Source of the DNA: Balanoglossus misakiensis
Lineage: Eukaryota > Animalia > Hemichordata
Length of the DNA: 64,000 nt
Reading direction: 5' to 3'
NCBI GenBank assembly: GCA_040954595.2
Contig: CM082581.2
Coordinates: forward strand, 8,206,059-8,270,058
The position numbers and the translations under genes were made by a program. This document shows positions 345 through 63,019 of the stretch, piece by piece. The notes under the pieces are model-generated. The model had not been told where the DNA came from and ran no database searches. It worked only from the letters and a program-made list of their open reading frames with translations. Within the stretch, counting starts at the first letter, position 1. Each line of letters opens with the position of its first letter.

Positions 345-1345
345 TCTTCTCCATTAGACGATTGCGATGGCGCTTTGTTATTTGAATAGAGCGAGGCGCA
401 GTCACTCGAGATAGCGTCATTTCATCTCCACGTTTATTGCCCAGGCCTGTGCTGCTCATTACACGCTGATATTGACACGGTACAAGCAAAAAAAATCAAA
501 CACAAGGTTTGTGTACAAAATCTGCTTTTCACTGATTATCATTACTACTTGACGTCACGTGTCCTTTGTAATCGACATCGTATGAATGTGAAATGAACAA
601 GTGGGCACAATGGCCCGGCCCCGCACTCGCCTAATTTGCGCTCCTGTCGAATGCCGGGAAACTTCTTACAATAGCTTACACCGTAAACCCCGTGCCTCAG
701 ACCCAGCCATCAACTCTGCTCCTCCTCCCCCCCCCTCATCCCGAAAAAAAATCAATTTAGCCCAGTAATGACAGAGTGGTGCCCCTGCAAGAAACGGTGC
801 AATCTCGTTGATCATTTTTTATTCGCTCGCTCCACTGTGGTCTGAAAAGTCCACGCTTTCTTCACCGAGACCACTTAGACTTAATGGCTTGTACCAATTT
901 CCGCCGTTTACACTGAAATCATCTTCCCTTGTAGCAGGAGGACGTACTAATTGGCACAGCCCTTTCAACACACTTTTTTTTCACGGGAAGATCCTGCCTC
1001 AACTCGGGGGGAAAGTCGATCCTCTACCTGCGATTTGTTGAAATTTACACCTTGAATCGGATACGCGCCAAGTAAGCGGTGGAGATCATGTAATTTCTAT
1101 AGTCCGGGATTTAGCACAAACGCAAACTGCCATTAGCGGCATCGAGGTGAAATTTTTAAAAAAGGAAAAGTGAAAGAAAAGTGAGAAAGGAAATGTTTTA
1201 CACACAGATGTCGACTGATTAATGGTTCAGCGCCCACAACATTGGAAAAATAACGCCGGAAAATTAGTCCTTATTACAGGAAAACCTATCACCGGCGCGG
1301 CCAACAATGTTGGTGCTAATTGGGTCCGAGCATGCGCTCTGGTGG
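345..1345 (+). repeat. Left copy of an inverted-duplicated non-coding element (candidate enhancer)
   Basis: 456-614 is the reverse complement of 62520-62676, and 868-909 of 62210-62251 (41/42). Weaker collinear matches: 1256-1268 vs 61861-61873 (13/13) and 1274-1294 vs 61582-61602 (18/21). Outer limits are approximate. Confidence 0.9.
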
Positions 1346-1443
1346 GCCAATTAACTCGCCGGACTGCCAGAACCGGTGAGACTATATCGTATATCCGGGT
1401 GATTGTGGCGGTTAAGATAACAATGGCTGCCTTTCCAACACTG

Positions 1444-1903
1444 ACATAACTTTTGCCCCGAGATATATGCCCCACCTAATATGAGCTCAAGAGTTTTCAT
1501 TATACTCAAAATGATGCAATTTTGAATAATCCCTTTATAGATTTCATTGTGTACACACCAACTTTTTTGGGTTGCAAACGAAGGAATGTCCCTTACAAGA
1601 TCTATCCAACACCACTTGTAGTGTTTGTAAAACCCCAAGTACGTATAATTAAATTTGAAAACGCACTGTTTTATCTGAAACACTGAAATCTGAAAAACTG
1701 TTAATTTTATTAGATCTTGGCACACACAGGAATACTCTAGAATTAATTTACATAAAATGATTAAGCAAAATGTGGATAAGCGTATGCAAAGATGAACTGT
1801 CAACGGAATTTGAATATTGACCTCAATCAACAGGTGATATCGAACCGAGAGCCTCAGGCAATAACTGTGTTTCTTTCTCACACACCATCTGACCACCCCT
1901 TAA
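1444..1903. mobile_element. Possible DNA transposon fragment
   Basis: AT-rich block ending GACCACCCCTTAA (TTAA-GGGG type terminus); no matching second terminus found. Confidence 0.2.
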
Positions 1904-4900
1904 AGATGCGAGCGATCCGAATATCTTGGTCCCACACTTCATCCACGGACACAATTTCCAGTCACAAATATGACCTCGATCGCATCCTGGGCAAGAATAA
2001 TTTTAGAATTTTAAATGCAAACTGGAGCATTTTACAGACACTATACAAAGCCGCACACAAGTGGTCGTCTCATCGATTCGTTCGCCTTTCATATTTCCGC
2101 CCGACCGACCAAATCTGTTAGCCCCAACGACGAGAATAAACTCAAAATGTCAAAATATGAACCGGTAAATGTCAAGTATAATCGGATTATGAAATCACAC
2201 CAGCCCAGATCAGCATATACAACATTTTCTTCCTAAGACAAAATCTCCATATTTTAATTTTTTATTATTTTAAATTCAATATTTCATGCCAAGAAAGGAA
2301 AAGTCACGGGTAAACTGTGTCACTAACGTGGGGGTTCTCTCCCTCTCCACAAAGACTTCGATATCTCATAACCTGTACTTTCGTGTTGTGTGCAATTACG
2401 CAGTATAGTTCTAATTCTGATGAATTGAGCAATTACGGTATTGTCCACGCTGCCCAGAAGACCCATAATTACACGACCAAAAGGTTTCGAATTGTCATTA
2501 TTAATGTTGAAACACTAATTCAAGACATGACTGTTAGTACTTGTTACATGTAATTAGTTGTTCGCACACTCCAGGCAACGGCCGGGGCAGATATGTGATT
2601 CTCCCCGGTTCCGGCAAACACGCACACGTGCAAGACCAAGTTGCGATCTTGTTCTACGACACAAAGCCGAAAACTGCATGTGACAGGGGGGTCTCACCGG
2701 TCCCCACGTGTAAAGTGCTACCAGAGCCGTGAATTTTGAGTCGGTTGGTTAATTCAACACTCGTCGTCTCTCCGTGGCGGTAGATTTTTTTCTCGTAACG
2801 GCACATTTGCTTATTTGATCTGAATATCGCGTTTCTTCGAGAGCCACAAGTTTCTCAAAATATTAGATAAAATTACCGAGTCCTCGAAACCGCCAGTAAA
2901 CAGCTCGTTGAACATTCGGGGTCAGGCTTTACCTTCCATGACATAAACAACTTTCATCTTTTTAAATTTTATTTCAGGGGATGTTAATAAAGAAATTTCT
3001 TTGTTAATTTGTTCTTACTTGATTTATATGACATTGACAGTGCCTGCCTTTGTGACGGCTTGAGCATTGAACCAACCAATTTCAAAAGGGTAAGATTTAA
3101 GTGCTCGTCAAAGCGAATAAAAAATTACAGTGCCTCGTAACAATAACAAGACGATAATGGCGAAGTGACACAGTCACCAGCCAACAGCCACTCAAGGACT
3201 CTCATAAAAAAAAGCACTGTGCGTGGATTTCACATTTCTGTCGTCGCGACTCATACCGGCCGTACAGTTTGATGTAAATTCGCAGCCCAGAGGGACTTCC
3301 TGCGCCGAGGATGGGCCGAATTAAAGCGAGTCTCTTACAAAGTTCTATTCTGCTGCGGGGCACACTGTATATCGACGGATTGTACAAAACTGACATCCTG
3401 CAGAGTCAATCGTGATTTTGTCTTCATCGCTGGCAGATAACATATAATGGCTGGGCTGCGATTGATTCATGAATATAGGGTGTCGTACATTCGTCAATTT
3501 GTCAGGCGCTCTGCACCAGACGACCTACTCCCTTTTTACTTTCATCATCTCCGCGTCACAAACTCTGATATTTGAAACAAACAGAAAATGATTTTTCTCT
3601 CGAACGACACTACGTGAATTTGCGATGTCTTTGGCGTAGATCTCGATGGCCGCGATGGTTGTCGTGTTCAGACTCTCTAAGTACAAAATGCCCAATGCGG
3701 ATTGATTATCTAAAATAGGAGGGAGAAATATTGTAAATGGACAGAGACCTTCGCGGATGGAGAGACAGAGAGACATAACAGCAGTGTTTGAAGGAGCAGC
3801 ATTGTTGTACAAGTGGCACAAATCAATGGGAGCAGGCCCACAAATAGAATGCTAGAGAAAAAAAAGAGAAGTCGACAGGTTGAAAACAAACAGATGTGTT
3901 CTGGCAACATAGAGTAGCATCAAAAGAAAGAGGAGAATCAATAGGCGTCGTTTTGTGTCAAAGGTAATAGCGTGACTGAATATATTCGAATTCACTAAAA
4001 AAGCGGACATATTGTCTTTTGCTGGCCGGAATTCACCACATCTTTTGGTTCCTTTGGATGTTGTTCACGAGCGAGGGTGCGTTTGGTAGCTTAATTGGTT
4101 AGTTCGACGAGTCTGGTTAAGATCAATTTTGGCGTTGGCATAGTGACCGGTGTTAAAGCGTCACTTCGTGGTCTTCTGAAAGACCCTTGGTATACCCTTA
4201 GGAGTGTCATTTATCATGATGAGTGCTGTGGAGGGCGTTACTTGTTCTGCTGCTTAGTGACACATTAGATGGTGCACCTTAATTGTGTTGTTTTTAAAGG
4301 GCCAATGCACATGTCATTTGATTTTTATTGCGTTTGGAATCTGCTTTTTGTTGTTTTGTCATTTTAAGCATATTGAAACTAAGGGCAAGTAAGAGCCCAT
4401 GCGCGCGCACACAGATTTGTTCTTGCCTTGAGAAATACACGGAAGTGATATAAAATCAAAGAAATACTCTACAGTACGACTATCAGTTTGCCATGGGTGA
4501 ATCCGTTGATTTGTACCTGTGTCGAAAAGTAGAAGGAAGGGTGGTGGGAATCCCAGCCGACTGACACTCCACTCGACCTTTACAATGTTACACAACCACT
4601 TTAACTTGATTGCCCCGGATCGTTGCGAACCGCGACTGTCATCGAATGTGTAGATCTCCGTGTTCGGGCTATGTTTATCTCCACCATATCGCGTCACATT
4701 AAAGGGGAGATCATCGGCGAGGATTTCCTTGAACGGTGAAACGTGTCTCCACTATCAGTTCTCAGAATTCTGTATCCATAACAACTGATGGAAATCTTGG
4801 TGTGTGTGTTTTTTTTTCCACTTTTTGACGTCGCTGAACCCTTGGATACATGTATACAGCGAGATCCCCTTTGCAGTGTAGGGTGCTCAGCGCGCTTGGT

Positions 4901-6052
4901 CACGAGCCCTTTGTTTAAGTCTTATTCTAGCCAATAAGTACCTCATATTTAAATCCCCTTAAAATGTGTCAAGTTTTTTGTTAAACAAAGCAACATAACA
5001 GAAACGACGCAATTTGTTAGAAAATCGCGTTAATGAGTAAGGAGCATTAAGGTGCGCGCATTCATTAAAGAATAAAGCGCTTAATAAACATATTCGGTTG
5101 TTGGTCCTGGCTAAGTTTAAAAATCTGGATATGATGTCTCATTCTGACGCCATTAGTGCTTAGAAATACGCCGACATAAAACACTTCAAGATTTTCAAGA
5201 ACGGCGTTTCAACGCGTGGCCACTAGTTCGATTTAAAAATTACAGAAATACGAGTACAGTAAAGTAAGACTTCAGTACATTTACATCGTCATCGCCATAA
5301 ATGGACGGCGCCACCTAGATTTTGTTCTCTTCGCCGACTATCGTGCCGGTGCGTATCCTAAAATAGAGAAACCCGTCTTTCTGAGAAAATTCGACTCACT
5401 CCTTAAACGGTCCCTATCTCTATATACCCAATCAAATCACAATAATTGATAGTCATTTCACTACACTTAGTCAAATGACTACGATTTATATTAATTTCGG
5501 CGCTTGTTCTTTCCCCAGTATTCGTAATTCGCCATCGCCTCGGGTCTTGGTCTGCATGCGGTACGTTTTAAATATGCCGCGCTGCCTTTGGGCGTTGGGT
5601 TTCCCTGATGTGAACGCGAGTTTTGTTAAAAGCCGGCGATTTGCACAACGACAATCCTGTCTCGAACATACTGTTTGTAATATTACACATAAAATCTCAC
5701 GGGACTTTGTAAAAAAACACGTAACCTCGTGCACATTTCGAGGAAAGCATAAAAAACAACATTCCCCGGGTTACAATGTACATGTACACCAGAACATCAC
5801 CGCTGTGCCCTAAAAAATACAAATGCACCCAGTTTACCGAAACGAGTTTAACATCATTATTTTTGGCTGCATACGGCTGGTGAACCCCTATTTTTGACAA
5901 AAAGGGTTATTTTTTGGTGCCCATTAGAAATGTGATTTGTTGAAGTAATTAGTCCCTCAGGGCCTGTGTGGTATTTCAGTAGCTTCAGCGAAGCCCGGAA
6001 AATACGTCGCATGTTTTATATCTTGTGATTACGAAAGAAAGAAACGGGGAAA

Positions 6053-6085
<33 letters not shown>

Positions 6086-6087
6086 GA
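6053..6087. repeat. (AG)n microsatellite
   Basis: Directly visible. Confidence 0.95.
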
Positions 6088-6763
6088 AACAATTTGAGGA
6101 ATCTGAGCGTTTTAAACCCATGTATTGCGTCTCAACATCACTGGCTGTGTGATCACACGGAACGATAGACGCGACAAGCCAGACAAAACAGGAGAACGGG
6201 GCTGGTGGCAAAAAAAATGTAATAGTCCGAACACAACAATGCAAAATCGCTTTAAGGGATCACAGTCGAGGTCCAGCGCTTTGTGTGGCAGAATTAAATT
6301 GGGGGAAAACAAGCTGGTACTCTTCCAGAGTTTTCGGAGCAGCCATTCCAGAAATAAGCCGATTCCCACTCCGTGTCCTTTCCATTGAAATCTTGCAACG
6401 TATAAAACCACCGTACAAATGGGATTAGTCCATTTCGGGGTTGTCTCCAACTAGCTAGCTGCATGCGCGCAGATGGTCTAAGTGGCGGAAATTTCGGGGG
6501 GGGGGGGAGTTGAGTCGAGATTGTAGAAAAAGATAACCAGACTTTCAGACTTCCTAGTTAATTTACTGCCTGAAGAGCAATTATCTAAATAATGAAAATG
6601 TTTGAAAAGAGCCTTTATTATTTGAGATTCGCATTTTATTTCCACAATTTGACTTAAATTGGAACGGTATTGTTATAGCTATCGGTAGCGATCAGTAGAA
6701 AAGTCAGCAGACACTTCACTACAACACAGAAAACACGTCACCTCTTTGTGATTTGTTCATGCG

Positions 6764-7027
6764 TATGTATGTATGTATGTATGTATGTATGTATGTATGT
6801 ATGTATGTATGTATGTATGTATGTATGTATGTATGTATGTATGTATGTATGTATGTATGTATGTATGTATGTATGTATGTATGTATGTATGTATGTATGT
6901 ATGTATGTATGTATGTATGTATGTATGTATGTATGTATGTATGTATGTATGTATGTATGTATGTATGTATGTATGTATGTATGTATATGTATGTATGTAA
7001 TGTACATGTATGTAATGTATTATGTAT
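6764..7027. repeat. (TATG)n microsatellite, long and nearly perfect, with a degenerate tail
   Basis: Directly visible; produces the spurious MYVC/HTYI ORFs. Confidence 0.98.
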
Positions 7028-10000
7028 GAGTATGGCGTGTATGTCTTATAGAAGAAATTTAGATGTGTGTATAATTGAATATTGTGAAGTTGGGCAAAAC
7101 TCTCGTGAGAATTGACAATAAATGTCGTGGAATGCGAGATTTTGGGTCACTGCACATGCACAGTCTGTGGCGATTTGCGATATTTTATAATGTGTAAATG
7201 AAATCAAAAGCAAGTTTTTATTAATACTATAAAGCAACTGAGACGCTCTCCCACCTTAAAACTTTTCAACGAACCTGATTTTTTTTAAAACTTCCCCACC
7301 AACCAGGTCGCCATTTCTATTGACACGGACCTAGCTACGTGATCATAGTATTAACAAATATCTCCTTGGGATAATTAGTAGAAATATTGTCATTTTTATT
7401 CAAATAAGCAGCCCTACTCGTAGAGTTTCAATTGTAAAGGTTGTTTTGATGTCTGGAGAGACGAGACGACACACGTCTTTGTGGTTTGTGGGCTCTTGAC
7501 GGCACTTCTCAACGATCCGTAAGTTTATGGCACCGCTGGGTCCAGTCTATGTTTCCCGTCCTCGGGCGGCGAATAACTCCAGTAATTCTTTCCGAGCGAG
7601 TGGATCTCGAAACAAACTCGGGCTCTGTAACAGCTTATTTGAACGCGCAGAAAACCGTGAAGACAATGCCCACTCTTCCATTCTCTGGTCAATTTTATCT
7701 GTCTTCTTTATTTGATCAATGGCGGTGACGTGAGTGGGGGGATGTCCAGACCTCCTCCGCGTAAACCACGAAAAGTTTTTGTGTGTCTCTCTCTCGGCGC
7801 TAAATATAGATGCGCATTTTGCCGATGTTTGGAGACGAGACGCCAGTTAAGTAGGTGAAAAAGAGATCACTCTGCCAATCAAGAGACTTAGAATGAAAAC
7901 AATTACCGGCTAGTCACTGGAGCAAAATTCAGGCCATTCACGTCACACCGTATCCCGGCTGAGGGGCGGTTTGGTGCCGTGGAGGGGAGTCCAACAAAGA
8001 CTTGACTTGATGTGGCTTGACAGGTAAGCGCGGCGATCGCAATGTTTACGCTCGCCCCCACTGTGAAATGAACACAACTTGCTCTCATTAAGTTTTTATT
8101 AATTGCTGACAATCTGATAATTGGCGCTTAACAATTCGTTTGGAACAAACCTTTCCCCCAACTCTGTGTGACAATTGCCAGTACTGCACGTTCCATTTCC
8201 CCCATACAATCCCCAGCGCCGGCGATTATTGGTAGAATTTGGCAGCATTGTTCGCGGACAAAACGATGGCATGCATCCCACATTCAGGCAGGCGTCACTG
8301 TTCCCGAGATGATCAGGGTTCAAGTATCGTCTAATTGCTGAAATTGCCAGCTCAAAGGACAACAAAAAAATCAATGACTGACATAGGAATATCCTGACAG
8401 TTAAAGCTTCTTCGCGAACTTTCGACCGGTGATGTCAGGCATTTCAACGCAAAAATATTAACTGAAGCAACTCCAATTGTGTGGTATTACGTAGTATTCT
8501 ACACAGTAGGATACGTAAAATGGCCCGTTTTGGACAGCTGTGATTTCAATCACTTATCAATCTAACTTAGTTTTGTTTTTGCTCGTGTAGTATCGTTTGT
8601 TTTTGCTGCAATAACGTGGGTCGATAATAATTTGAGCATTGAGTCTGTTCTCTGTTTCATAATATCAAGTCATGAAACCCAGTTGACCGGGAAGCCAACA
8701 ACGGGCGCTCTTACCTCTAAATGAGCTAAAAAAAATAAAGATGTCTGTGATTTTCACCAGGGAGCCCCTTCAACTCCAAGGTGTATAAGCTTCCTGGCGT
8801 ACGATCACAATGGCCTGAAGTAGAAGCCATTGTTTGAAGGAGGGGGATAATGATTGGTACGTGAAAGGGTGTGCGAATAGCCCTGTGTAAGTTCATTATT
8901 CTGTCACAGGTGTGAATCAGCTGGGACTTGGATAATTGGACAGCGAGATGGCCATTTTTTTCTTGGCTGTTTTATCCATACATGGCTACACGCGGAGCAG
9001 CTCCTTGCTCTACTACTGGGGGCCTTGTCTGTTTCATAAGCAGTTGTGGTTTTAAAAGTTTGATTCTTAGTGCAAAAGTCGGCGAGTGTGTAAAATTTGA
9101 AAAAATGTCCGAAGTTATTGATTAAGCATTTTTTATTTTAACAGTTGTCTGAGATTTAATGACTTTATGATTTCTCTACAAATAATGATACGCAATTGCT
9201 AATACCAGCGCGGCGAACAAAAAGACTAATTTCCCTCAGACACCAGTAAAATTTAAGCTGTTTGCCTGTAGTGGGTTTGGCTGACGAAGTGCCGTGTACG
9301 AGCACTGACGAAGCGATGGTGGGGACGGGCAGCGAATATCGACTGAGGGGAACAGGTTGTGTACTTTAACTGCGCATTGTCGAATACCGCTTAGTTTACA
9401 CAACTTGCAAAATCCCTTTATGTCCGTCAGTCCGCAAAACAAACCCTCTAAATCACCAAGCAAACACTTGAAGATTTCTAAGTAAACACGGGTGAGAGTG
9501 AATGAGATTCGCTCTTTGCCTATAGACAGTGGTGTCTATGGTCTTGCAAAAAAGGGTCACTCCTGTGGGCCTCTTTTGTGTTTCAGGACGGTTTAACATA
9601 CCACTACAAGTACAACGAGCATTGTCCTTGTTTAGGGGGGAGAACTCTAGCGCCAAGAGTTTGCACAAAGGGGACAGAAGCAAGAGGCACCGGTGAAGTG
9701 GAAGCGTTTTGTTTGGGAGCCTCTCAGTAATTGCCCTCTTAAAATCCCATGTTAATTGCTAGGCGTGGCGCCATCGGGGTGAGAATTTCGGAAAATCAAC
9801 ATAATTTGGGCGAAAAACACACAGTCAAATGTGTGGGCAATAAACGCTACAATGGACAATAGGCTAGGCTCAAACAAAAAGCTCTAAATTGGGGTAAACC
9901 CTAATCACCCTCCTTCGGGGCTTGCTTTAGCAACAACTACAGTCATAATTTGAGCACTTTGCGAGACTAAGATGTCGATTTGCGATAACGGACCGCCACT

Positions 10001-12214: not shown

Positions 12215-12217
12215 AAA

Positions 12218-12268
<51 letters not shown>

Positions 12269-12270
12269 AT
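12215..12270. repeat. (AAAT)n microsatellite
   Basis: Directly visible. Confidence 0.95.
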
Positions 12271-13718: not shown

Positions 13719-13862
13719 AGACAGTCAGACAGACAGATAGATAGATAGATAGATAGATAGATATGGATGGGTGGACAGACGGATGGATAGGTGGGTGGAT
13801 AGATAGATGAATCAGTGGATGGATAGATGGATGGATGGGTGGATGAATGGATGTATATGGAT
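13719..13862. repeat. Compound (GACA)/(GATA)/(GATG)n microsatellite
   Basis: Directly visible. Confidence 0.9.
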
Positions 13863-21308: not shown

Positions 21309-21834
21309 CAGATAGTGAAATATAGTCACTTTGGAACAGTATTTTTGAAACAGTTGTGACGTTTCGATTTGACTACAACGGAACTTGATCACGCAATGGT
21401 GTTAATTATTCAGCGTTGATGTCTCAGCAACAGGCGGAATAATATGTCCGTAAATAGATGGCAGGTGATATCCTTGGTCTCTGTTCATGATTGGCCACCG
21501 TTGTTTGATACAGGTGGATTCTTTCACTTTACGTTTCAACCAGTCCTGTTCCCTGGCTAGAACCTTGGTATTATGCCAGGAAACACTATGGCCGCGGTGG
21601 CGTTGCAGTGCTCCCCAATTCCAGTAGACTTTTCCTTGTTGGTGTGTTCTTTGAAACGGACGCATAGTGGACGTTGGGACTCGCCGATGTATGCGCGACG
21701 GAATAATTAACACCATTGCTTGATCAAGTTCCGTTGTAGTCGGATCGAAACGTCGCAACTGTTTCAAAAATACTGTTCCAAAGTGACTATATTTCACTAG
21801 CTACTTTGAGTCTTGGAACCAGGAATTTTCCATG
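21309..21834 (-). mobile_element. 5'-truncated Penelope-like retroelement (PLE) insertion
   Basis: Minus-strand peptide GHSVSWHNTKVLAREQDWLKRKVKESTCIKQRWPIMNRDQGYHLPSIY resembles the C-terminus of Penelope/Poseidon GIY-YIG endonucleases. 99-bp inverted repeats at 21313-21411 and 21701-21799 (95/99); the right copy has a ~35-nt tail. Direct repeat GATAAAGAGGA at 21298-21308 and 21835-21845 (TSD). Confidence 0.82.
21716..21758 (+). ncRNA. Minimal type I hammerhead ribozyme-like motif in the PLE pLTR (possibly degenerate)
   Basis: TTGC-TTGATCA-A-GTTCCG-loop-CGGATC-GAAACGTC-GCAA: stem I TTGC/GCAA, CUGANGA-like box, stem II, GAAA, palindromic ACGU and a GUC cleavage triplet. The 3-8 pair is non-canonical (U3/C8). 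Confidence 0.5.
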
Positions 21835-23917: not shown

Positions 23918-24032
23918 ATGTATGTATGTATGTATGTATGTATGTATGTATGTATGTATGTATGTATGTATGTACATGTATGTATGTATGTATGTATGTA
24001 TGTATGTATGTATGTATGTATGTATGTATGTA

Positions 24033-24068
<36 letters not shown>

Positions 24069-24070
24069 CA

Positions 24071-24157
<87 letters not shown>

Positions 24158-24206
24158 ATGTATGTATGTATGTATGTATGTATGTATGTATGTATGTATG
24201 TATGTG
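23918..24206. repeat. Compound microsatellite (TATG)n-(TG)n-(TGCC)n-(TGTC)n-(TATG)n
   Basis: Directly visible. Confidence 0.97.
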
Positions 24207-24788
24207 CTTATAAATATATGTTAGTTCATATCAGATATACATACATGCATATTTATTTATTTATTTGTAAGTGTATCAGCAGGAGTTAAATATGTTGAGC
24301 GATTTCATATTAATTCAGTCGGTAGATAATTTCGATAATTTGGGGGTCTAGAATAGATACATATCAGTATGTATCAGTATACACGGGTGACTCTTTTGAA
24401 CGAGATGATCTTTCAGCGTGGAGATTTTTTTATTAAAGTGGTTCTCTCGGGTTTCGAGGATATCGGATTTCCAGAATCTGACAACAAATTTTCTAGCGCG
24501 AGTGTTGAAAATGAGCATAGCTAGCTGGCGGCTGTTGTACCAGCTTTCTATACAAAATCTTCCATTTTAGGTTCCCCCCTCTTTTGGATGTATGACTGAT
24601 CCTGCAGGGAGGGGGATTTTGGAGCTCATTATGGCCGAGATTCGAGTTACCGAGTTCCGAGAACACATAAACCCGCTGCGGGGACAAGGGTTCGTTTCGT
24701 GTCACCCAGACGTTTAACAAGCACCGGATGACGACACGAATTTCAGCGCAGATGCGCTTAAACTAAACTATTCCAAGTTTCTGCTTTT

Positions 24789-24858: not shown

Positions 24859-25676
24859 GATTTAATTTCATTTCTTACGCGCTGATAACATTTCGCGGTT
24901 GGGCTCTCGCAAAAAATGTCCACGCCACGTACGCGCATTACGCGCATGCACACGGGCACAGCGCGCGCACACGCCGTTGTATTCGATTACATTCGGTCAG
25001 CTTTGTCCCCCGACCGTGAGACGAGGCAAACTTTGGAAACAGTTTATTGCGACATCACGGTCCCACTGAACTCCTCGGGGCGTATCTACCCACGACAAAT
25101 GTGATATAGAGACCCCAGTAATGCAATAAGCCCGAGAAAGCCCCGGTAATAGACCCAATATTCGGGTAAGTAGCAAGCGAAAGCTTTTGTAGGAAATTGT
25201 TGGTATTAAATTAGAGCCGGTAACCCAGGTAGTCCCTCTCGCATCGTATTGTTCAAGATTAGCCTCTGCTGTCGTCAGCTTTGAAGTATGATGACTCTAA
25301 TAATCGGCTAATCTCTAGCATTCATGCTTAGAACAACAACAAGTTACACTAGGGTATTTCCGCATCTTGGATTTCAGTATCCACTTGTATGCAATATTCA
25401 AGAGCGTCTTGATTTCGTTTCCTCGTACATGATCAGTCGGGTCCGTAAATGCTTATTTGTACACGGCGAGCCAGCAGAACCAGATAAAGCGAGTCTTTGA
25501 AGACCACGTGACGAGAATTTTGCACACTTTGGCATGAAACTTGTATGTATTTTTGGCTTAATCGTCTCATCATTGGGGGAAATAATGTCTAGAACTTGTT
25601 TCTAGAGGACGCCATTTAAAGACGATTCACCGTCGTGGAGAACACGCACACATATACTTCTTCGTTGGTCTTTATC

Positions 25677-25679
<3 letters not shown>

Positions 25680-25768
<89 letters not shown>
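25680..25768. repeat. (TC)n microsatellite
   Basis: Directly visible, perfect. Confidence 0.97.
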
Positions 25769-25771
<3 letters not shown>

Positions 25772-25834
25772 CTAGCATAATGAAGTGGCGGTTAATATGC
25801 GAACGCTAATATTTTGCATTCGTGGATAATTCCC

Positions 25835-26016
25835 ATCAATTAATCAACCAATCAATCAATCAACCAATCTATCCGTCGCTCGTTCGCTGAGCCGCCCTCT
25901 CACCTAGTCACTCAATCAGCCGACCGACCGACAGACTGACTGACCGCGAACCGATCGATCGACCGATCAATAAATTAATCAATCAATCACTTAATCAATC
26001 AATCAATCAATCAATC
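25835..26016. repeat. Degenerate (ATCA)/(ACCG)/(ACTG)n tetranucleotide repeat
   Basis: Directly visible. Confidence 0.8.
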
Positions 26017-27219: not shown

Positions 27220-27680
27220 AACACAGCAATTACATCAGAAGCATGTGTGTATAATTGCCTGGGAATGGTTGTTAATATATCATATTATGTACACGGCGCA
27301 TCATCTTAGCCATGCCGAGTTTTTAGATCATATTTTACTGAGCCCAACCAAATCCTTGTTTACGGGGAGACACACGTTAATGCGCAGAATCGGAGGTCAC
27401 TCTTACGAACCAATTACAGGGCAAATTGCGGCGGAACAGCCAATTGCGTGAAAGTAAAAGAAAAAAAAATCATTTAAAAACGTCAACAACTGGCACCTTA
27501 ATTGCTTTCTTAATTCGCCCAATAAGGTAAAGTTTTCATCACTCATTACATTGTGGGAAATCTGGTGGGCGGAGTTAGAAGCCACTCTCGCTTACGCTAA
27601 TCTCATTACGCATTGTGTGCGTCCAATCGCAGCGCCTTGCTTGCATGTCAGACATTTAACTTGCATGACACTTTTATTCA
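27220..27680 (+). promoter_or_regulatory. Putative Hmx proximal promoter
   Basis: 450-900 bp upstream of the ATG: CSL/Su(H)-type TGTGGGAA 27552-27559, GC box GGGCGGAG 27567-27574, CCAAT 27623-27627, several CAATTA/TAATTG homeodomain sites including TTAATTGC 27498-27505. No clear TATA box; the TSS cannot be placed. Confidence 0.5.
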
Positions 27681-28121
27681 GATATTATTATCGCGTTCGG
27701 TGAACGGCGCCAGTTCGGCTCTTTCTCGTCGCGCACCGTATTCAATAACTCGTGAGTTCTCAAGCATTTGGGGACTATGCACCAGTTGGTGTAGGACTTA
27801 CAGTTGGCTACCACCAACATTCCCGTGTCTCACATCTGTCAGCGCTGTGTTGGGTTTGCGAGGAACTGACTGGCGAAAACAAAACTTTCATCGGCTCTCG
27901 CTCGCTCGCTCACTCACTCACTCGCGGGAGGACCTTATCCGGATCGTGCAGATACACATGCACACGGCGCGGTTTTATTAATTCGATCACATTGGAGATA
28001 CTCCCCAAAAGCCGCAGCTTTTGAAGAAGAAAAAATCACACTCGTCGAGAAAGACATTTTTATATTTATTTGAAAGAACTTTGATATTTCGCGCGAGCGA
28101 ATAATAAGAAGACGGCGAAAG

Positions 28122-28401
28122 ATGTCGACGGAGAAAGAAGAGATGGGCTCGCCAAAGTCGAACAAATTCTCCATACAGAGCATACTGAGCACAGACAGCA
28201 GCAAACAGAGGAATGCGGACAGTAATTCGGACGGGCGACCGTCCTCTGTGGAAGACTCCACAACAAACAAGGCGGAACGAAGCGATCTCTTGTCGTACAC
28301 GTCGGTCGCACAGCACTTTGTCAGCGACAGCGCGGTCGCCCGGCCGAACCCCTGGTACCCGTGGATAGCCGCAAACCCATATCTTCATTACGCATTTGAA
28401 C
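28122..28401 (+). CDS. Hmx: Hmx/NK5 homeobox gene, coding exon 1 (93 codons + 1 nt)
   Basis: ATG at 28122; encodes MSTEKEEMGSPKSNKFSIQSIL with an eh1 Groucho-binding motif (FSIQSIL, 28167-28187) and a W/Y-rich NPWYPWIAANPYLHY motif typical of HMX N-termini; ends at a strong donor GAAC|GTAAGT (phase 1). Confidence 0.9.
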
Positions 28402-29660
<1,259 letters not shown>

Positions 29661-36097: not shown

Positions 36098-36220
36098 ATG
36101 TATGTATGTATGTATGTATGTATGTATGTATGTATGTATGTATGTATGTATGTATGTATGTATGTATGTACATGTATGTACATGTATGTACATGTATGTA
36201 CATGTATGTGGATGGATGGA
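36098..36220. repeat. (TATG)n/(TACATG)/(GATG) microsatellite
   Basis: Directly visible. Confidence 0.95.
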
Positions 36221-39200
36221 CGGATATATGCAATCTTGTGCGAGTGTTTCTACTCCTATATTTTCATGGATTTAACAATTTATACATTGCAGGAAATATC
36301 ATTCCAAATGCATTGTTATTACCCCTTGAATGAATAATACACCTTCGTTTTATTGCTCGTTCCGGAGCGTTGTGAAGACGCCTCGTTTCATCCGATGTGT
36401 CAAAGTAGAACCCCCCCCCCCCAAAAAAAAAAAATGACGATGACGACTTGCCCAGATGGATCCAAATCAGATTTTGCAGCGGATCTCCTAACTATTAAAT
36501 GCCCTAATACGGTGAAGCAAAGTCGAAAATAGCCGTGGAGGGATTTTATTACACGTTGCGCAGCAGAATGACAAAATGGCAGATATTAACTTCGTGCACA
36601 GCGCCACTCTCTTTTTGTTTTCCTATCAAAAACGTATTACATTTCCCCGGTCTTAATTAGAATGAAGTGTTATGGGGACCAGGCTGTATACGAGGTAGAC
36701 GGCAATCCCACGGTTCGCCTTTCTGAAGTGGATTCTCTTATATTCTTGAAAGCATTTTGATTGCTCAACATTTAAGTTGTTGGGTTGCTTACCACACTAG
36801 GCGTAATGGAGGGGCCGATTACCCAGAGTAGGCTTTTAATAATAAATGCAAGTTATATATCAAAAAAGTAGCCATTGGTTTACCCCGGGCTGCGCGCCAT
36901 ATGGCTGTCTCCAGTTTTTTTTCTTCGGCCCGAAAGCGACGATTGGGGCATGGGACCGGAAGAAAAATGTCTTTAATGTATACCCCCATACGACATCAAT
37001 CGGTATATTTGAGGTGTGCTGCTACCACCGTCCCTGATCCGTGAGTGTTACGTGTAGGTATCAATTTATGACTTTGATAACGCAGAACCGGCAAACAACA
37101 CGGTTTGTCTCTCCCTCCTGGTGCAAATACGGGACGTCCGTCGTCACACACGGAAATTATTCCGAAATCATGCCTCTACGACGCGCTACACGCAAAGCAG
37201 AACCAGTTTCACCTCGTATATATACTTGTCCCCCCCTTCACAAAGGCTGCCGAAAAGTTATCAAGCCGCGTTCACCTGCCCCTCTGCGTGCTGCTCGAAC
37301 GACTGCGATAATAGGTCGTCGGGAGTTTCAGCCAGAGTGTCTGGCCAGCCCGGACAGCGGAGGGGACATAAATTACAGCGGTGGAGGAGCTTTTTGAAGA
37401 TCCGCGAGACACCCTCCTCAGTCAGCCGAATCGGTCTTGTGAGAGCGGCGGAGCGAACAATGGCTGTCACGAACAACTAGTCTCATTCATCTTTTTAAAT
37501 TGTGGCATAAAATGGGGAATCTTTTTTAATCGTCGATAAGGCATGAAAACACCCCCTTTTAACGGTGATTTGCACATACCATCCACAACGAGTGCTTAAG
37601 TGGGACCCGAAGTTACATTTGAGTGATCACCGACGATAGCATCTTTTAACTTAAATGTAACGTGTATGGTTATGTTCAGTGTTTGTGCAAAAAAAAGAGA
37701 GAGACCCGTCTCTATATAGATGAAAAGAGGGTCGCCATACAAGCCCATTGTTGTCTAACATTAAAAGGCGATTCTCGGTTCCCTGCCACGATATGTTTAC
37801 CTGTTTTATATATGTATCACGGAATTAAGAAGCGCAACAGTAACACGGTCGACGGCTCATGCTTTGCGATAATTATACCAGTTGCGCGAACCGACTCTTC
37901 ATTAGGGGAATAGGATAAACATGTACTCGGAAATTTGATAGAGAGCCAAAAAAAATAACATAATCATAATTCTATTCCGTCCGTCATTAAATTTTCTAAA
38001 GCCTCTGTATAAAATATAGATATCGGATACGCCACCGAGGACAGGCAAGCGTTTGTGGAGATGATACCGCAGTCCCCTATCTTCTCCGCTGTTCAGTAAT
38101 TTCGTAAATTGATAGATGCGCGCACAGTGTAACTCAATTGCTGCAGTGGCCATCAATTGTGACGTACACGGGTACTATCGCACGCATTATCAGCCGCTGC
38201 TTATCTGCGAAATTCACCAGTTTAGGTAAGGCCTGCGCAGATCACTTCCTCTGTCGGAAGCAGGAGTGAAAAAAAAAACGTAGAGGGGGGGGGGGGGCGA
38301 AAAATACAAACTAACAATACAAATAGAGTGACGTAACTGCGGCAATCCTCACCCCCCCCCTGTGTATTTCAAATTTTGTACCTTGCTAAACAAAATTCAA
38401 ACCATCGATTTTATTGTAAAAAATAAAATCAAAGCGTCCCGACAGTGTATATACATAACGTTAGATTTGTAAAGGTGCTAGGCTGATCTCCAACAGACGG
38501 GCATTAATTATATGTGTATATACGATCACTTAAAAAGAATAAAGTATGACTCAGCGTTAGCGATAACAACGAGGAAAAAGCTCCGAAATTGGGCGCTCCT
38601 AAAACCCACAGATGAAGATGTTTGATTGAGCCAAATTAATTGTTCAAAATATGAAAAAGTCGGATATTTATTGCGCGCGTGTGAGAGTTTAATTTTAATA
38701 CACAGCGATAAAAAACTAGCTGCGAACCAAAAAATGGGCGGTTTTAACGAAAGTATATGGTGACGCGATCAAACTGATAAGTGCAGAGTGGGTGCTTAAA
38801 GTACTCTAGAAGACTTCTATTTATGCGTGCATGTTGAATATCTGGAGCTGTGTGATCTAGCCAAAATATATGAAAAATGCCTTGGGGTAAGCTTACTTTA
38901 CCGAAGTAGGGTGATCGTCACTATGTGTAACACACCGGCTGGAAATCAGGCTAGTCGAGAGAGGGGGTGCGTGGTAATTGCAGTCGGGCGTAATAGTAGA
39001 AGCAGTCGACAAAAGCCAGCGATTTTTGTCGATGTTTTGTTTCCTATAGTCGCACCCAACCCCTTATAAGGATTCCTCAATAGGTGAAATCTGGGCCTTC
39101 TCGTATTACACCAATTTACGGGGGACCGACTGAATCGTACCATTGAAATGATTGCCGGGGAATCAATAGTTAATCGGCGGCAAATTTAACCTTGGCTACT

Positions 39201-47373: not shown

Positions 47374-47472
47374 TTGATCCTTTCGCTGCACCCAAGCCTC
47401 CTCCCCCCGGGAATCCAACTTTACCATAAAAAACAATGGATTTGGACCTATCCATGGTGGTGAAAGGGTTAA
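47374..47472. mobile_element. Short piggyBac-like (TTAA-CCC) MITE remnant
   Basis: Right end GGTGAAAGGGTTAA; left end TTGATCCTTTCGC matches its reverse complement TTAACCCTTTCAC at 10/13 positions. Confidence 0.4.
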
Positions 47473-48159: not shown

Positions 48160-48243
48160 CTCTGTCTGTCTGTCTGTCTGTTCGTCCGTCCGTCTGTTCG
48201 CCTGCCTGTCTGTCTGTATGTATGTCCGTATGTTTGTTTGTCT
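48160..48243. repeat. Degenerate (TCTG)n repeat
   Basis: Directly visible. Confidence 0.8.
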
Positions 48244-55670: not shown

Positions 55671-56145
55671 TTAAAGGGTCGTTGCCGCCAGTTTTGACAC
55701 GATTTGGACCGTATTTTAGTTTCGTACACCGAAGTCACTATTCTCCCATGGCATTGGACCAGAAACGGTGTTCAGTTTATGAATGTAACATTTATATGTG
55801 TAATGGCCGTTGTTATTGTTGACAAATGAATCCAAGCCTGGGCTTGATGCAATATTCAAAGATAATTCTGACTGAACTCAAATTAGTGGTGTTGATAAGC
55901 AAAATTCTAGTGATTTCATCATGGTTTAGTGTTTGAACATGAAAATTCAGTATATTAAGTATTTTTACAGAACAAAATGGCGAAAATAGCCAACATTTGA
56001 AGGCAATGGAGTTTTGAGATTAGTGTCTATACAATATGTTATGTTTCGTAAGCTTTAAGACAAGGCTACATATACCAACATTTAAATTTTTAATTGATAC
56101 CCGAAACGCATCAAATAATCCGCCATATGTTGCTGAACGCTTTAA
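55671..56145. mobile_element. Possible Kolobok-like non-autonomous DNA transposon remnant
   Basis: Bounded by TTAAAGGGT... and ...ACGCTTTAA (TTAA TSD-like, AG termini); AT-rich interior with a degenerate internal palindrome (CAAGCC/GGCTTG near 55840). Terminal similarity is short. Confidence 0.3.
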
Positions 56146-58875
56146 AGAGCTGAGGTGGTCATATTTCTCTCTACTTTAAATATTAAACGATTCATTTTGA
56201 CCCCTTTGGTCTAACTAGAAACGATCCATCGTCAGAACGAATACTCTTCGCGGCCTGATTTTTTAAAAAAAGTTTTCTTTGCTGGGGGGGGGGGTGCTAT
56301 ATCTGTCAGGTCGATCAGCCAAACTTGGCTTTAAAGCGTTGACCACAACTGCAGTCTGTAGTCTTTGGGGCAAATAAACGCAGAACGCAGTATACACACA
56401 CACACACACTCAAATTCATGTATATTTCACACCCTGCTGGTAAAAATACACGTATTTCAAAGCGATATGCGCATGCGCCGTTTGGCACGCTCCCAGATTC
56501 ATTTTGCGGCGCGGCTTCCACAGGGATAAGGATGTCTCCTTATCTATATTTAATTTCAAATAAAAACAGCGAATAAACGATGAAACTGCTGATTTTTACA
56601 CTAAGCGGAAGTTGTCTTTTTCTCGCCCGAGAATACTGGGGAGACAATCCCGCGAAAGTCGCCTTTGAAGATGAAACACGCAAGTGTTAACAGAACAGAC
56701 GGCGAAGATGAGATAGAAAATATCACATTACAAAATTATACTGATTTGAAAAGGAAAATACCACGGTGAAACGAGCCAAATCGCTGGAAATAAGTGGTGA
56801 CTGTCTGTTTTTTTCGGATAATTGTATACTTTATAGTGGCAATCTTGTACACCCTTAGGTGTGAATGTAATGGCGCAGCTGGTATGCGCTTCTGTCTTGC
56901 TGTGGTCTTCTTTAGAAATAAAGATGTCTGTAGGAAAAGGTGATCTCGTCACGACAATAAGCCTCCATTTACATTTTGGCGATTTTTTCAGAGCGCATTC
57001 AAGATTCAGAGATGTAATCAATTCAAGCTGCAGCGAATGTAGTCCGCTCCATACCACCGGCAACGAACCCTTTTCTACCAGCAACACAAAAAGGGATTAC
57101 TAGTAATAACAGCGTTCGGTTTAATTCAACCAGTGGGGGGAAATGGAATGAACGGGAGAAGAAGAAAGTCAACTTTGTTTGTCAGAACGGCAGTGTGTTG
57201 TATTTCGCGGTGTACACACGGATATTGTACTTCCTTTCGCTTTCATCACACTGATTCAAAAATAACTTCTGAAAGTGTCGGATTTCTTCTTCAGCGGAAT
57301 ATGTTACTCAGACGCCTCGAATATTATTACCCAGATGCCCCGAAAACCCTCGCCCTGACTGTAACTGGCGCCGGCGCAAACTCGCTTCCTGTTTTAAAGC
57401 AAAGATGCAAAGCGCATGATCAAGTGCAAATTTACGACATCTGTGAAGCTGTATATGACGTGTAACCCCTAGCAACAAAGGTTGCATAGTGAACGTCTCA
57501 TATTAGTTTAGTCGAAAGATTGGATTCTTCTGCTAGAGTCACGATCCTATCAGAATAATTCTTTTAATTTCCAACAACGTTCGAAACTCAATGAATTGAC
57601 ATTTCGCTGTTGCTCTCGGCTACAAGGGAAGATGGAACAACGCTTGTTGGATCTATCACGATCCCTTTAATAATAAATTCTTTGAATGTTGATAAATGGA
57701 GGAAAATGTCATAACTTCAACATTTCTGTGGTCTCTGAATGTGTACACGCGTGGTGCCCTTTTTACGCTGTATGGTTCTATTACCACTTTTCGTTTCAGT
57801 GCGCGGTTGAAAAACAGCACGTCTAGCAAAGTTGATATGCAGCTGAAGTTATACATGAGAGATCAACAATATTCGATACAAGCTCCGACATTTTACCCGG
57901 TAAAAAATAAAACAAAGATAGTTGATAACAATAACAAAAGAGCATCTTTGCCATTTATTATGATTAAATCAAAAAATTTCTGACTTGCAAATATTTACCT
58001 TCTTAGATGGAAGGGAGCAGGAAGGGAATGGACGATAAGAGAGAATGCACGAACCATTTTAAGTGTGCTGAATTTTTCGAAAGAAAGGGGCTGTTCTCTT
58101 AATACTCTTTTTTGGAAGAATTACTCACAACACACGTATGTAGACGATTCCAGAATTCACACAGAGAAGCATTTGGTTCATTCGTTATATAGGGTCATAG
58201 CTCGTCGAAAATAATTAAAATATTCAACTCACTTCGTGTTCCGGTGTCCTAAATATAACAAAAAAGCGAACTCTTCATTAAAATATAGCCATATTAATCG
58301 TTAGTATTCGTTATTATTTGACAGGAAAAGGGTAGAGTCCCTTCGCACTGCTAGCTGTCCTTCAAAAGTGAGCCAGTACACCGGCTTTAGCTATTTTTTT
58401 CCATCTTTCTACCTGGAAACGGAATATGGTTTTAATTCCAAGGGGGATGTCTGTGACAATCAGAAGGCCACCGCTCTGATTAGGGTAGAAGCCATTGTGA
58501 ACGATGCCTGGTAGCGGCCGAAAACCCGAGGCGCTATACATTAGAGCTAGCAGAGAAAGAACAAGCACTGAAATTAATATCAATTGCAGTCATTTGACTG
58601 CATATACGTGGACCAAAATTACTATCGATTCTTGTAATTTAATTGAGTAGTCGGATTTGACTGCAAGCGATACGGGGGACCTCTGATCAGACATGGGCGA
58701 GCGTCTCTTTTGTTTTTACAAAGGTTATCCCGCTAATTGGTGGAACCGTCAAGCGGCGTGCGCGTACGTGTGGCGGCGCGGGGAGAAAGTCGGTATAAAA
58801 CGCGATGCAACAGGAGGGGACTGGAAAAAAAGATGAAGTTAAAGTTTAAAGTTTAAAAGATGCGTACATGTACAT

Positions 58876-58886
58876 ACAGACGGACA

Positions 58887-58919
<33 letters not shown>

Positions 58920-58945
58920 ACAGACAGACAGATAGATAAATAGAC
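58876..58945. repeat. (AGAC)/(AGGC)n microsatellite
   Basis: Directly visible. Confidence 0.9.
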
Positions 58946-61200
58946 ATTCCGATTGTACAAAATACATGTATTGTGATTCAGCCTGTCACAATGGACATGC
59001 CTTTATTTGCGAACCCTGGTCCGTTTCCATGCGAAAAGCAGGCGTTACTGTGGTAACAGTTACAAACACGGAGTTCAATCAGTCGCTAAGTAGCTCTTGA
59101 AATGCAATAATAACCCCCTCACCTCGAGTTAGACTCCCGATTCGAATCAGCGAAACGTCAACAAACCATGAAATCAGGGGACCACGCGGTTGCGTCTGTC
59201 ATTATTCCAACGAGTCAGACGGAAAATATTGACCGACAAGCAATTTCCAAAGTTTCCGTCTACGTAATTCAGAAATCAATTGCTCGCATTAGGTAAAGCA
59301 TTACACTCTGGGTAATTCGAAATTTGTGCAAAACCGTGTTAACTTCAATCAAACCTGTCTGACCGTTCTAAAAAGTTAATTAACTATGCCAAATATTACT
59401 GTAAGGTGGCTTTAAGCTTTGTCAGAGCTTGTAGACCGTGATGTCGGAACGACGGAATTCAATTCGCGCGTTTTCTGCCTCTTGGCCTCTGGTTAAGAGC
59501 ATTTGCAACTTCTTATGAAAAAGATTGCTTTTAGAGATTACTTATAAGGCAAATTATATACGTGTATATTGGCCTTTTAAGGTCTTAATTGACGTTGGGA
59601 GAAAATTTTGCGGTTTATCCACATTCGCCATTTTCAGAGTACAGCCTTTATTTAGATTCGTAACTCTGTACCGTTCGGATTTAAATGTGATCATTGTTCA
59701 TACTTATGTGCTTTATTTTGTTCTTAAAGATGCAGTCTATTTATACTGTCCTACTTAGTGTAAAATTCAAACTAATACCTTGATGGTACTTTTCCCGCCA
59801 TTTTGGCAAGGCCAGCGCATGACTCGCACACTGACTCGCGCGCATGTAGGTGGGTACATGTATAAGGAGTTCATTAACGTGCCTGTAGATCATATAATAT
59901 GCTTATACGATCGACTTATTCATCCACACGTACAGCGGGAGTGGTGTTTTATTGTAAAAAAAAACAGGTATGTTTCATCGAAAGCCTCGGAGCAAGATGT
60001 GTCAAATTCTGAAATGAACAAAAGTAACCATTTGAAAGATGGCGACCAGACATGCACACAAAAAGACTGGGAAGATATGGAGAGAGAAAAAAAGAGAGAG
60101 AGGGGGGGGGGGGAGAGAGGGAGAGATAGACGACAGACACAGTGGTGCGTAAATTTGAAGTTTTCAACAAAAACCCTCTATTCCATCGCGACTGACCAAA
60201 TTTGGTCACGTGGACAATTCTCTCGTTGGATTAAACCGCGGATGTATGTCCTCGTCTGATTGGATAGATCTCTGACAATTAAATGAATCGGCAGACATGC
60301 TGTCCAAAGAATCGGTCTTTTTGTAAAAAAAAAATCCATAACGACTGACAAGAATCTTGCTTACACAACCGTAGTTTTCTGATGTTTGCGGTTTCTTGGA
60401 GAAGACTGTTTCAAAAGCCTGCTAAGCTAATTGGAAAAGTAAGGTTTTCCGAGCGTGTGCGCGCCCGTTTTTTGGGTCGATGTAAGATGCACAAAGAGGC
60501 AGTTCGTGTCATTACGAGACTTCCATAAACAAAACTAATTATGCATCGTCCGTCTCGTCAAATGCCATTTCTCGACTCAGCGTGGAACCCGCCGAAATGT
60601 TTCCCCCTCAGGCAACGGCAAAGAGTTGTAAAGAATACGCAACATATCTGACCTTCTCGCTTGTTGCCAGCGATAAAATTATAAGCCCAGTCATTACCTT
60701 TTCCATCATAGCACATGCACGCCATTAAATCGTCTCAAGCCTCGATCTTTTTTTCAATGGCGAGACTATAAGGACTTTCGTTGAACGGGGGAGATCTGGA
60801 AGCTTTGAACACGGATCATAAAGGCTTCGGGATGCAAATTTTTCATCAACCGCCTTGCCACTTGTGACGAAGCAACGAGAAGTTCGGTGTGAGAGATTCG
60901 TCTAAATTTTTGAAAGACGATGCAAGGACCGGATGCAAGAAAAATCTCCCGAGGTCAGGGCAAGACATGAAGATGTCATACTGAACGGCGAAATGATGCT
61001 ACACTAGAATACGTCCAGTAAACTTGCTTTATGCTTAGAAGTAGCGTTTGTTTATTCTCCTGCGTTTTTTTGACAAAGAAAGAAACTCAAGTAAGAGTTT
61101 CGATATTTTAAATCGGATGGTATGCGGTTATGGTAAAAGTACCTCTTCATTACCTTTGTCCCGCCATTTGAATATTTTTAGTCAACCTAACAACCCAGCC

Positions 61201-61376
61201 AGTCAGTCAGTGAGTCAGTGAGAGAGTCAGTCAGTCAGTCAGTCAGTCAGTCAGTCAATCAATCAATCAATCAATCAATCAGTCAATCAGTCAATCAGTC
61301 AATCAGTCAATCAATCAATTAATCAGTCAATCAATCAGTCAATCAGTCAGTCGTCAGTCGATCAATCAATCAATCA
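61201..61376. repeat. (AGTC)/(AATC)n microsatellite
   Basis: Directly visible. Confidence 0.93.
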
Positions 61377-61529
61377 GCAAGTCTAATAATATAACAGAAC
61401 ATGTTTTTTCTCCTGAATATAAATTTCATGAATATTTGATATTCCGAAATGCACACACATGACGCTTATTACCACACTCCAAGTTTGTTTATTTCAGCTT
61501 ATAACGCTGGAGTGCATCTGAGCGAGCAC

Positions 61530-62760
61530 AGAGGTCCGCGCTGGCTCCTAATTAGCTCCAAAAACCCCGGCAATAATTGGGCGGTGAAGGGTTTTCCTGC
61601 AAACTAACACCTCTGAAGTCGGTCTCACTGAGTCAATAACTAACAGCGCAGTAACTAGACACCCCGGACTATACGGTTACTTTGAGACTAAATTAACAAT
61701 AGGGGCAGACACTAAAGCTTTTCGTCCCACAGGATCGGTTCGCGCAGCTTTCAATCCAACTAATTGGTAACCCTTTATCTACGCCTTGAAACGCGATCTG
61801 TGATTGGCAAGGGCAGCATTTCACATGATTGCCGCTCGTTCTCATTAAATTGCCGATTCTACTAATTTTCCGGTCATCCTTTTTCTCCCCGAACTGATTG
61901 GTTCGAAAGTTGACGTTAAAACTTGGCCACTTGAGACATCGAATGAATGTGAATACAATTTTTTCTTCTTCTTACGAATGATGCTTTTTCATCCCGATTC
62001 TCCGTCGATCGGGTTCTCAATACTAATACCGTTGTTAAGCGCCATGAATAAGCAAAAAATATTCCTTGAAACCGTATGCACTCACAATCTTAAACGATCA
62101 GCCTCGGCTCAGATTTCATGTATTCTGGAGCTTGATCTTGCATGGATAGCAGGAAAGAGTGTACCCAATTACGGGGCTCTCTCAGGCACATTACATGGCG
62201 ATTTGCTGCAAACGGCGGAAATTGGTACAAGCCATTAAGTCTAAATGGTCTGATAAGAACGTATCGAGGGCTTTTAAACACAATATTTCTTAATAACGAG
62301 AATCGCGGCAACTATGGCATATCATTTGGGTATTCCGATCACAATATTTCGGTCTAAGTATATTTTTTTAAATCTGCAATGTTTCCTTAAGCCCGATCAT
62401 CGTACGCTTTCCTATTAGTAAGCCCCACCCGACCGATGGTAATTATTTCCACCCATTGTGAAATCTGGTGAAATCGTTTTCGGCGGCGTACAAATCGCGC
62501 GAGCATTTTGTGCGCTCAAGCCATTGTGCCCACTTGTTCATTTCACATTCATACGATGTCGATTACAAAGGACACGTGACATCAAGTAGTAATGATAATC
62601 AGTGAAAAGCAGATTTTGTACACAAACCCTATGTTTGATTTCTGCTTGTACCGTGTCAATATCAGCGTTTTAATGAACGGCAGAGGTCTATAACATAACA
62701 AATACGAGGAGGAACTAAGTTTTATTGGTTTCGTGATGCGCTTGTTGACTGGAGAAGGTG
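61530..62760 (-). repeat. Right copy of the inverted-duplicated non-coding element (candidate enhancer)
   Basis: Reverse complement of ~345-1345, with islands at 62520-62676 and 62210-62251 and similar inter-block spacing. Confidence 0.9.

Positions 62761-62872: not shown

Positions 62873-63019
<147 letters not shown>

Follow-up and report, generated by a model that had tools for sequence, protein, structure and literature searches.

Mirrored non-coding islands on both sides of a predicted Hmx gene in Balanoglossus misakiensis are probably relics of an ancient inverted duplication

Results

The window, the whole 64,000-nt stretch of DNA analysed here, contains a predicted Hmx (NK5) homeobox gene on the forward strand at 28122..29660. 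Its reading frame and splice sites define two exons and 312 codons, with the predicted ATG at 28122, an intron at 28402-29001 and a stop codon ending at 29660; the family name is presumably correct, given the homeodomain features and an upstream enhancer match. Hmx is the sole recognisable gene between the two arms described below and the only gene seen in the 64 kb. Apart from the Hmx exons, the window has 42 long frames, none of which matched a Pfam family, and a single homeobox was counted, with no second homeobox or Hmx pseudogene in the window. A 65-nt inverted match from the start-codon region to 33679-33614 was considered as a remnant of a second Hmx and rejected, as its score was at noise level.

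The window also carries one copy of the pan-animal Hmx enhancer of Royo et al. 2011, as relayed by Frith and Ni 2023 and displayed in their Fig. S11 (PMC10735318), placed by motif matches at about 27515..27715 on the forward strand, 450-600 bp 5' of the Hmx ATG. Exact matches to CCCAATAAG..TTTTC..CACTC and ATTTAACTTG(C/G)ATGACA occur only at 27518 and 27654. This enhancer lies outside the mirrored pair and has no detectable similarity to its islands: the islands contain neither motif, and none of the eight island copies aligned to it above the 5% level.

Four non-self matches came out of a self-BLAST of the window after repeat masking, and three of them belong to one mirrored pair of sequences on either side of Hmx. 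An earlier note on this DNA had described such inverted collinear copies, and their extent proved larger than it had stated. Five segments (A, B, C, C2 and D) occur in the same order and in mirror orientation in both arms, on the forward strand at the left and on the reverse strand at the right. Each segment alignment was scored against 1000 random same-length pairs from the window, none of which reached the observed score for any segment; for the weak segments C and C2 these values are optimistic, because segment borders were chosen after the matches had been seen. Island A (443..614 and 62520..62689) is 92.5% identical (E 7e-66), with a fully identical stretch at 463-488 (26/26) and a core at 506-614 that differs at one position (108/109); its left copy contains TAAT, CACGTG, CTTTGT, CAAGTG and CACAATG motifs. 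Island B (868..912 and 62207..62251) is 95.6% identical (43/45, E 3e-13), with a weak tail to ~965 on the left. Anchor C is an exact 13-mer (1256..1268 and 61861..61873) within a segment of 14/18 identical positions. The weak island C2 (about 1272..1341 and 61529..61602) is ~60% identical (z 5.8), which taken alone is at or below whole-window noise.

The spacing of these segments is largely shared between the arms, with 253 and 268 nt between A and B and, from the exact end of B to C, 346 and 336 nt (347 and 337 in the earlier reading). Collinear spacing breaks down at C2, before which the right copy has ~260 extra bases. The A-B and B-C spacers are as strongly diverged as had been claimed, with 47% identity and z values of 0.7 and 0.9, equal to random; because the spacers are unrelated, the copies are not alleles. 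The element had been thought to start at ~345; no similarity exists in 300-442 (z -0.4), which places its start near 430-443. The mirror axis falls at 31.56 kb when calculated from A-C, as expected from the ~31.6 kb given before, and at 32.03 kb from D.

Island D (5425..5555 and 58514..58649) is an additional block that the earlier note had overlooked. Self-BLAST aligned 5425-5513 with 58649-58555 at 76.8% identity (E 3e-13), and the full alignment of the two copies has 94 of 136 positions identical (69%, z 13.1 against 1000 random pairs). For a stray repeat pair, the chance of inverted orientation together with a location no more than 1 kb off the mirror position is ~1.6%. The alignment contains exact motifs of 10-12 nt, including the inverted-repeat motif AGTCAAATGACT, and such motifs in a 69% background are the pattern expected of putative site-level constraint rather than of a conversion tract. 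Beyond A, B and D, no mirrored block rose above forward and reversed controls among 114 tiles compared with the right half of the window or 135 band-restricted tiles, and none was found past D. The window holds no third copy of any island.

Hmx is the likely target of the mirrored islands. The margins of the window beyond the islands are only 0.4 and 1.3 kb, so target genes other than Hmx are possible. The islands could be paralogous enhancers of a duplicated gene pair outside the window, with Hmx merely in the spacer, and their position at the extreme ends of the window would suit such an arrangement. We consider it unlikely, however, since the similarity ends where A ends on its outer side and extends inward as far as D, and Hmx is the only gene in view.

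The identity of the islands exceeds what evenly acting neutral decay would leave, as had been proposed: P for 108/109 is 1e-16 even at a 69% background. It also, in our judgement, exceeds what selection alone typically leaves in paralogues with saturated flanks. Old duplication patches without function might be kept alike solely by repeated gene conversion. The 109-nt tract with its single mismatch and fairly sharp inner edge would fit, and conversion tracts of ~150 bp are reported between inverted Dlx genes of Capitella (PMC3199776). Slightly less probable still than a gene pair outside the window, this explanation has to contend with several separate islands with graded shoulders, with a D that was kept motif by motif, and with neutral decay, which everywhere else would erase the homology that conversion requires.

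Motif content is consistent with regulatory function for A and D. With a panel of developmental motifs that was chosen after the sequence had been seen, A had 13 matches where 5.0 were expected (p 0.002) and D had 8 where 3.8 were expected; the known proximal enhancer had 11 (expected 5.8), and three spacers had 3, 10 and 7 (expected 7.3, 7.7 and 8.2). Enrichment of the panel in B and C2 was not significant. The suggestion that the copies could anchor a loop found no support: a CTCF consensus matched 5 times where 5.4 matches were expected, and the arms have one CTCF-like site with two mismatches, at 1332-1345 on the left, and none on the right, hence no convergent pair. Conservation of the islands is read here from paralogy, as two copies within one window. 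Exact scans for motifs of A and B in metagenome contigs and of B in viral contigs gave no loci; these collections hold no animal genomes, so the empty scans are uninformative on conservation.

Copy number was examined in short-read contigs. The stretch is carried by three runs, all from one sample, and by no RNA run among the runs listed. One run, X1, was read whole for A and B at 80% likeness and gave two entering and two leaving flanks, all matching the left or right window copy. The depth of the collapsed core in X1 was 78.1; two loci would be expected to give 78 and three loci 108. The finding of no more than two flanks at A and B speaks against a family of repeats and against an artefact of collapsed assembly, and the view that this is not a dispersed transposon family holds for these two islands at that likeness. 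It is quite improbable that the pair consists of two decayed copies of an old transposon, of its terminal repeats or of a rare dispersed repeat. Inverted orientation would suit such origins, and the flank count extends to A and B at >=80% likeness, D having been seen within the window alone; against them, divergence is uneven, no coding remnant was found, and three trial ends showed no target-site duplication, although old ends would be eroded. X1 differs from the left window copy at 8 positions, all outside A and B, which is not significant (0.25 for 7, ~0.2 for 8).

A comparison with vertebrates had also been drawn, in which a pair of conserved elements was said to flank the Hmx3-Hmx2 cluster. 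In the published layout, uCNE is found on the 5' side of Hmx3 and dCNE in the interval that separates Hmx3 from Hmx2, the two having arisen by tandem duplication (Papadogiannis et al., bioRxiv 10.1101/2020.09.07.281501), so the pair does not flank the cluster. Both systems retain paralogous non-coding elements in cis at Hmx after a local duplication. The vertebrate elements, however, are each 5' of their own retained gene, are longer than 1 kb, 500 bp of which form the core, and drove activity in CNS and cranial ganglia in reporter tests, whereas those described here are inverted islands of 45-170 bp around one homeobox gene, with one copy 3' of it and no sequence link found. Homology to the vertebrate pair is unsupported and, in our estimation, very improbable. 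In its favour are the shared gene family and a motif of 11 nt, located where A ends on its inner side, that matches the chimaera hmx1 row of the Hmx enhancer figure (one of six motifs tried; 12 nt by eye), but this match is a Sox-type site without extension, and the deep Hmx enhancer has its counterpart here in the single proximal site, to which no island copy aligns above the 5% level.

Reading frames, Pfam, Rfam and folding all indicate that the islands are non-coding and are not structural RNA. No Rfam family reached its gathering threshold, and two bacterial Rfam matches were judged to be chance. Left D forms a strong hairpin (z -4.6 and -5.3), as duplicated non-coding RNA genes or exons might, but right D lacks that hairpin and A folds worse than its shuffles (z +0.8 and +1.3), making such an origin highly improbable.

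An assembly artefact is the least credible explanation: the 62 kb distance and the orientation are known from the window alone and X1 may be the window's own source sample, but the junctions of both copies and the 268-nt right spacer are present in short-read contigs, and the window contains no N. Record 9 of X2, which joins the outer flank of the left copy to the inner flank of the right copy, was rejected as evidence of an inversion allele: the two copies share exact runs of 47 and 61 nt, longer than the word length, and such a path can therefore arise in either arrangement.

Discussion

We favour the reading, with a probability of roughly 60%, that an ancient inverted duplication, 4-5 kb long or longer, left the two arms as its relic, and that selection kept clusters of binding sites in both copies, probably as twin distal Hmx enhancers and perhaps with help from gene conversion. 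One old inverted duplication would have left both arms, and purifying selection would have held the islands in each as putative clusters of homeodomain (TAAT), Sox, Tcf and E-box sites. CAAGTG/TAAGTG sites of the NK/Hmx type would also make autoregulation possible. Each arm would reach the Hmx promoter from a different side of the gene and give redundant or additive (shadow) input, and the 109-nt core may owe part of its near-identity to conversion between the inverted copies. What was duplicated may have been the distal module alone, or the whole locus tail-to-tail with later loss of the second gene and its promoter. We offer a fuller form of the latter only tentatively, and on balance doubt it: after Hmx and its upstream landscape were duplicated tail-to-tail and the twin gene disappeared together with its promoter, the survivor would have adopted that twin's distal enhancers and be driven from both sides, with selection and gene conversion together keeping the cores near-identical across 62 kb.

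Shadow enhancers are usually defined by common activity, not by near-identical sequence. The mirrored islands resemble them in that two distant elements are predicted to act on a single developmental gene, and differ in that the pair is known from sequence and position. To our knowledge, known paralogous enhancers adjoin paralogous genes. The inverted Dlx pair of Capitella is a similar case, a homeobox locus duplicated locally in inverted orientation, in which a short tract stays near-identical amid diverged sequence, but there both genes reportedly survive and the tract lies in the homeobox, while here it is non-coding and one gene is present (PMC3199776). Duplicate conserved non-coding elements are also retained after whole-genome duplication, although these are reported to lie at separate paralogous gene loci and not on both sides of one gene (PMC11034925). 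The available portion of the Hedgehog paper of Irimia 2012 contained no precedent for a mirrored pair, and Hmx is unmentioned in the text and in part of the supplements of Clarke 2012. A literature search, with most subscription papers and several key ones outside its scope, returned no report of a mirrored enhancer set around a single Hmx.

A single gene with mirrored sets to its left and right amounts to a natural experiment: target and nucleus are the same, neutral DNA is saturated, and yet the 109-nt core differs at one position. Such a locus makes it possible to test why redundant enhancers stay letter-identical, whether cis-regulatory DNA is maintained by conversion, and whether duplication followed by gene loss can give rise to shadow enhancers. 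If the favoured reading is true, enhancers at Hmx would have been duplicated a second time, and independently.

A mirrored pair of non-coding islands flanks Hmx

Comparing the window with itself, we recovered two non-coding islands as inverted pairs, A (443-614 vs 62689-62520) and B (868-912 vs 62251-62207), and farther inward a further pair, D (5425-5555 vs 58649-58514; 69% identity, z 13), inverted and in matching order. The inverted, collinear pair described in an earlier note is thus real and larger than first reported: its proposed start at ~345 did not hold, as nothing outside A aligned in 300-442, and it extends inward to D, so that the duplicated unit measures no less than 5.1 kb in the left (low-coordinate) arm and 4.2 kb in the right. 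Exact runs of 26, 47, 61 and 35 nt are common to both copies; on the direct strand, no match in the masked window exceeds 16 nt. Judged against 1000 random same-length pairs, the A core (108/109 identical), B (43/45) and C (a 13-mer common to both copies) scored above random and C2 reached z 5.8, whereas the spacers were at random level (47% identity against 45% for random pairs; z 0.7 and 0.9), bearing out the reported contrast of near-identical islands and diverged spacers. Island spacing is 253 nt on the left vs 268 on the right, then 346 vs 336. Tile searches of the window revealed no further mirrored blocks above controls, and no third island copy was found in it. Long di- and tetranucleotide microsatellites (6763-7050, 23918-24229, 25670-26016, 36098-36230, 58870-58947, 61196-61376 and 62872-63025) explain nearly all remaining self-matches.

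Gene content around the mirror axis

A homeobox frame of two exons is predicted at 28122-29660, and we take it to be Hmx because of its homeodomain features and two exact motifs of the published Hmx enhancer just upstream. The symmetry axis does fall just 3' of this gene, 1.9-2.4 kb past the stop codon, which fits a duplication that took in the gene as well, the second gene being later lost; yet no second homeobox or homeobox remnant was found in the window. Pfam matched 0/42 other frames of at least 110 codons, in a scan that excluded microsatellite frames and frames at Hmx and that short exons would escape. A small element at 21310-21802 has 102-bp terminal inverted repeats (95%) enclosing about 290 bp; its minus-strand frame (21405-21800) has no Pfam match, and its terminal residues are reminiscent of the endonuclease tail found in Penelope-like retroelements.

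Selection on the islands is favoured

Even decay of both copies is ruled out for the A core (P 1e-16, even at D's 69%), which upholds the earlier argument from uneven divergence. Selection is the favoured explanation: the islands are several and separate, their shoulders are graded, and D retains exact motifs of 10-12 nt interspersed with mismatches. A motif panel for developmental factors, which we picked after seeing the sequence, gave 13 sites in A vs 5.0 expected and 8 in D vs 3.8, an enrichment about equal to the 11 vs 5.8 obtained for the known proximal enhancer; none of three spacers examined was enriched. Candidate NK/Hmx-type sites (CAAGTG and TAAGTG) occur in both A and B and would permit autoregulation. 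We put at about 0.6 the probability that two sets of distal binding-site clusters survive from an ancient inverted duplication and would each have been kept because both act on the single Hmx promoter. Gene conversion may have a share in the likeness of the 109-nt core; a comparable tract is reported for inverted Capitella Dlx genes (PMC3199776).

That the islands act instead on targets outside the window is unlikely. Slightly less likely is gene conversion without function. The proposed loop anchoring gained no support, matches to a CTCF consensus being at chance level.

A transposon origin is very unlikely. Three short-read runs from one sample are listed, and two of the three contain the stretch; we compared their contig sets, X1 and X2, with window 300-1500 at 80% likeness. 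X1 (339 million letters, searched in full; possibly the source sample) gave 10 matching contigs and, among the matches listed, only two flanks into A, two out and two at B, not the many dispersed copies that the earlier note had named as refuting. X1 differs from the window's left copy at 8 positions, all outside A and B, which is not significant.

The islands are distinct from the known Hmx enhancer

A published Hmx enhancer is conserved from human to cnidarians (PMC10735318). Its counterpart here is single, at 27515-27715 (+), 450-600 bp before the predicted ATG and therefore promoter-proximal; one motif is exact at 27518 (0/100 shuffles) and a second at 27654, and by eye it is similar to the rows for acorn worm and lancelet in the paper's species alignment (Fig. 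S11), which makes an invertebrate deuterostome a likely source. None of the 8 island copies aligned to this deep enhancer beyond chance (best, 56/1000 controls). The suggested homology to the vertebrate uCNE/dCNE pair is improbable, on a comparison made with the deep enhancer rows; from its reported position near HMX3, we infer that uCNE contains the deep element. Six short motifs were tried against Fig. S11 and one was found: 12 nt at the inner end of A (603-614, minus strand) are shared with the chimaera hmx1 row, a Sox-type site without extension by eye. Judged by sequence, the mirrored islands are not the known Hmx element.

Structured RNA is unlikely, and we give it very little weight. 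In left D we noticed a long hairpin (5430-5500; z -4.6 and -5.3, in a stretch picked after looking), which is due to a near-copy of the AGTCAAATGACT motif in inverted orientation at 5451-5462; a folding comparison found none in right D.

Copy number and assembly

The core 506-614 forms one collapsed X1 contig at depth 78.1, and its single-copy neighbours have depths of 47.9 and 49.1, from which the expected depth is 78 for two loci and 108 for three; B core depth is 93. As evidence for exactly two copies of A and B this is good, though not final: contig depth is not itself a copy number, six pieces fell outside the listing, some records were removed by a filter and the source sample may be X1 itself. 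X1 records 2 and 5 (right-copy flanks) have depths of 23 and 29, about half those of the left-copy flanks (48-56), even as core depth agrees with two full loci; greater heterozygosity near the right copy may be the cause.

An assembly artefact is highly improbable: the loose ends in X1 are the window's right-copy flanks, the one exception being a purine-rich match at 1149-1184 that is unrelated, and one 335-nt contig holds the right copy's 268-nt A-B spacer. This read check covers A and B (300-1500), and the 62 kb distance, beyond contig reach, rests on the window. In X2, record 9 (window 300-614) links the outer flank of the left copy with the inner flank of the right, showing the right copy's letter at 553 on the way, and extends 324 letters further without a listed join to B; it is probably a graph path rather than an allele with an inversion or with a longer spacer, as far as contigs can show.

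The mirrored pair is two-copy as far as examined. A literature search of partial coverage found no prior account of a mirrored Hmx pair; the feature itself is of known type, and what is new is its arrangement as a mirrored pair at Hmx.
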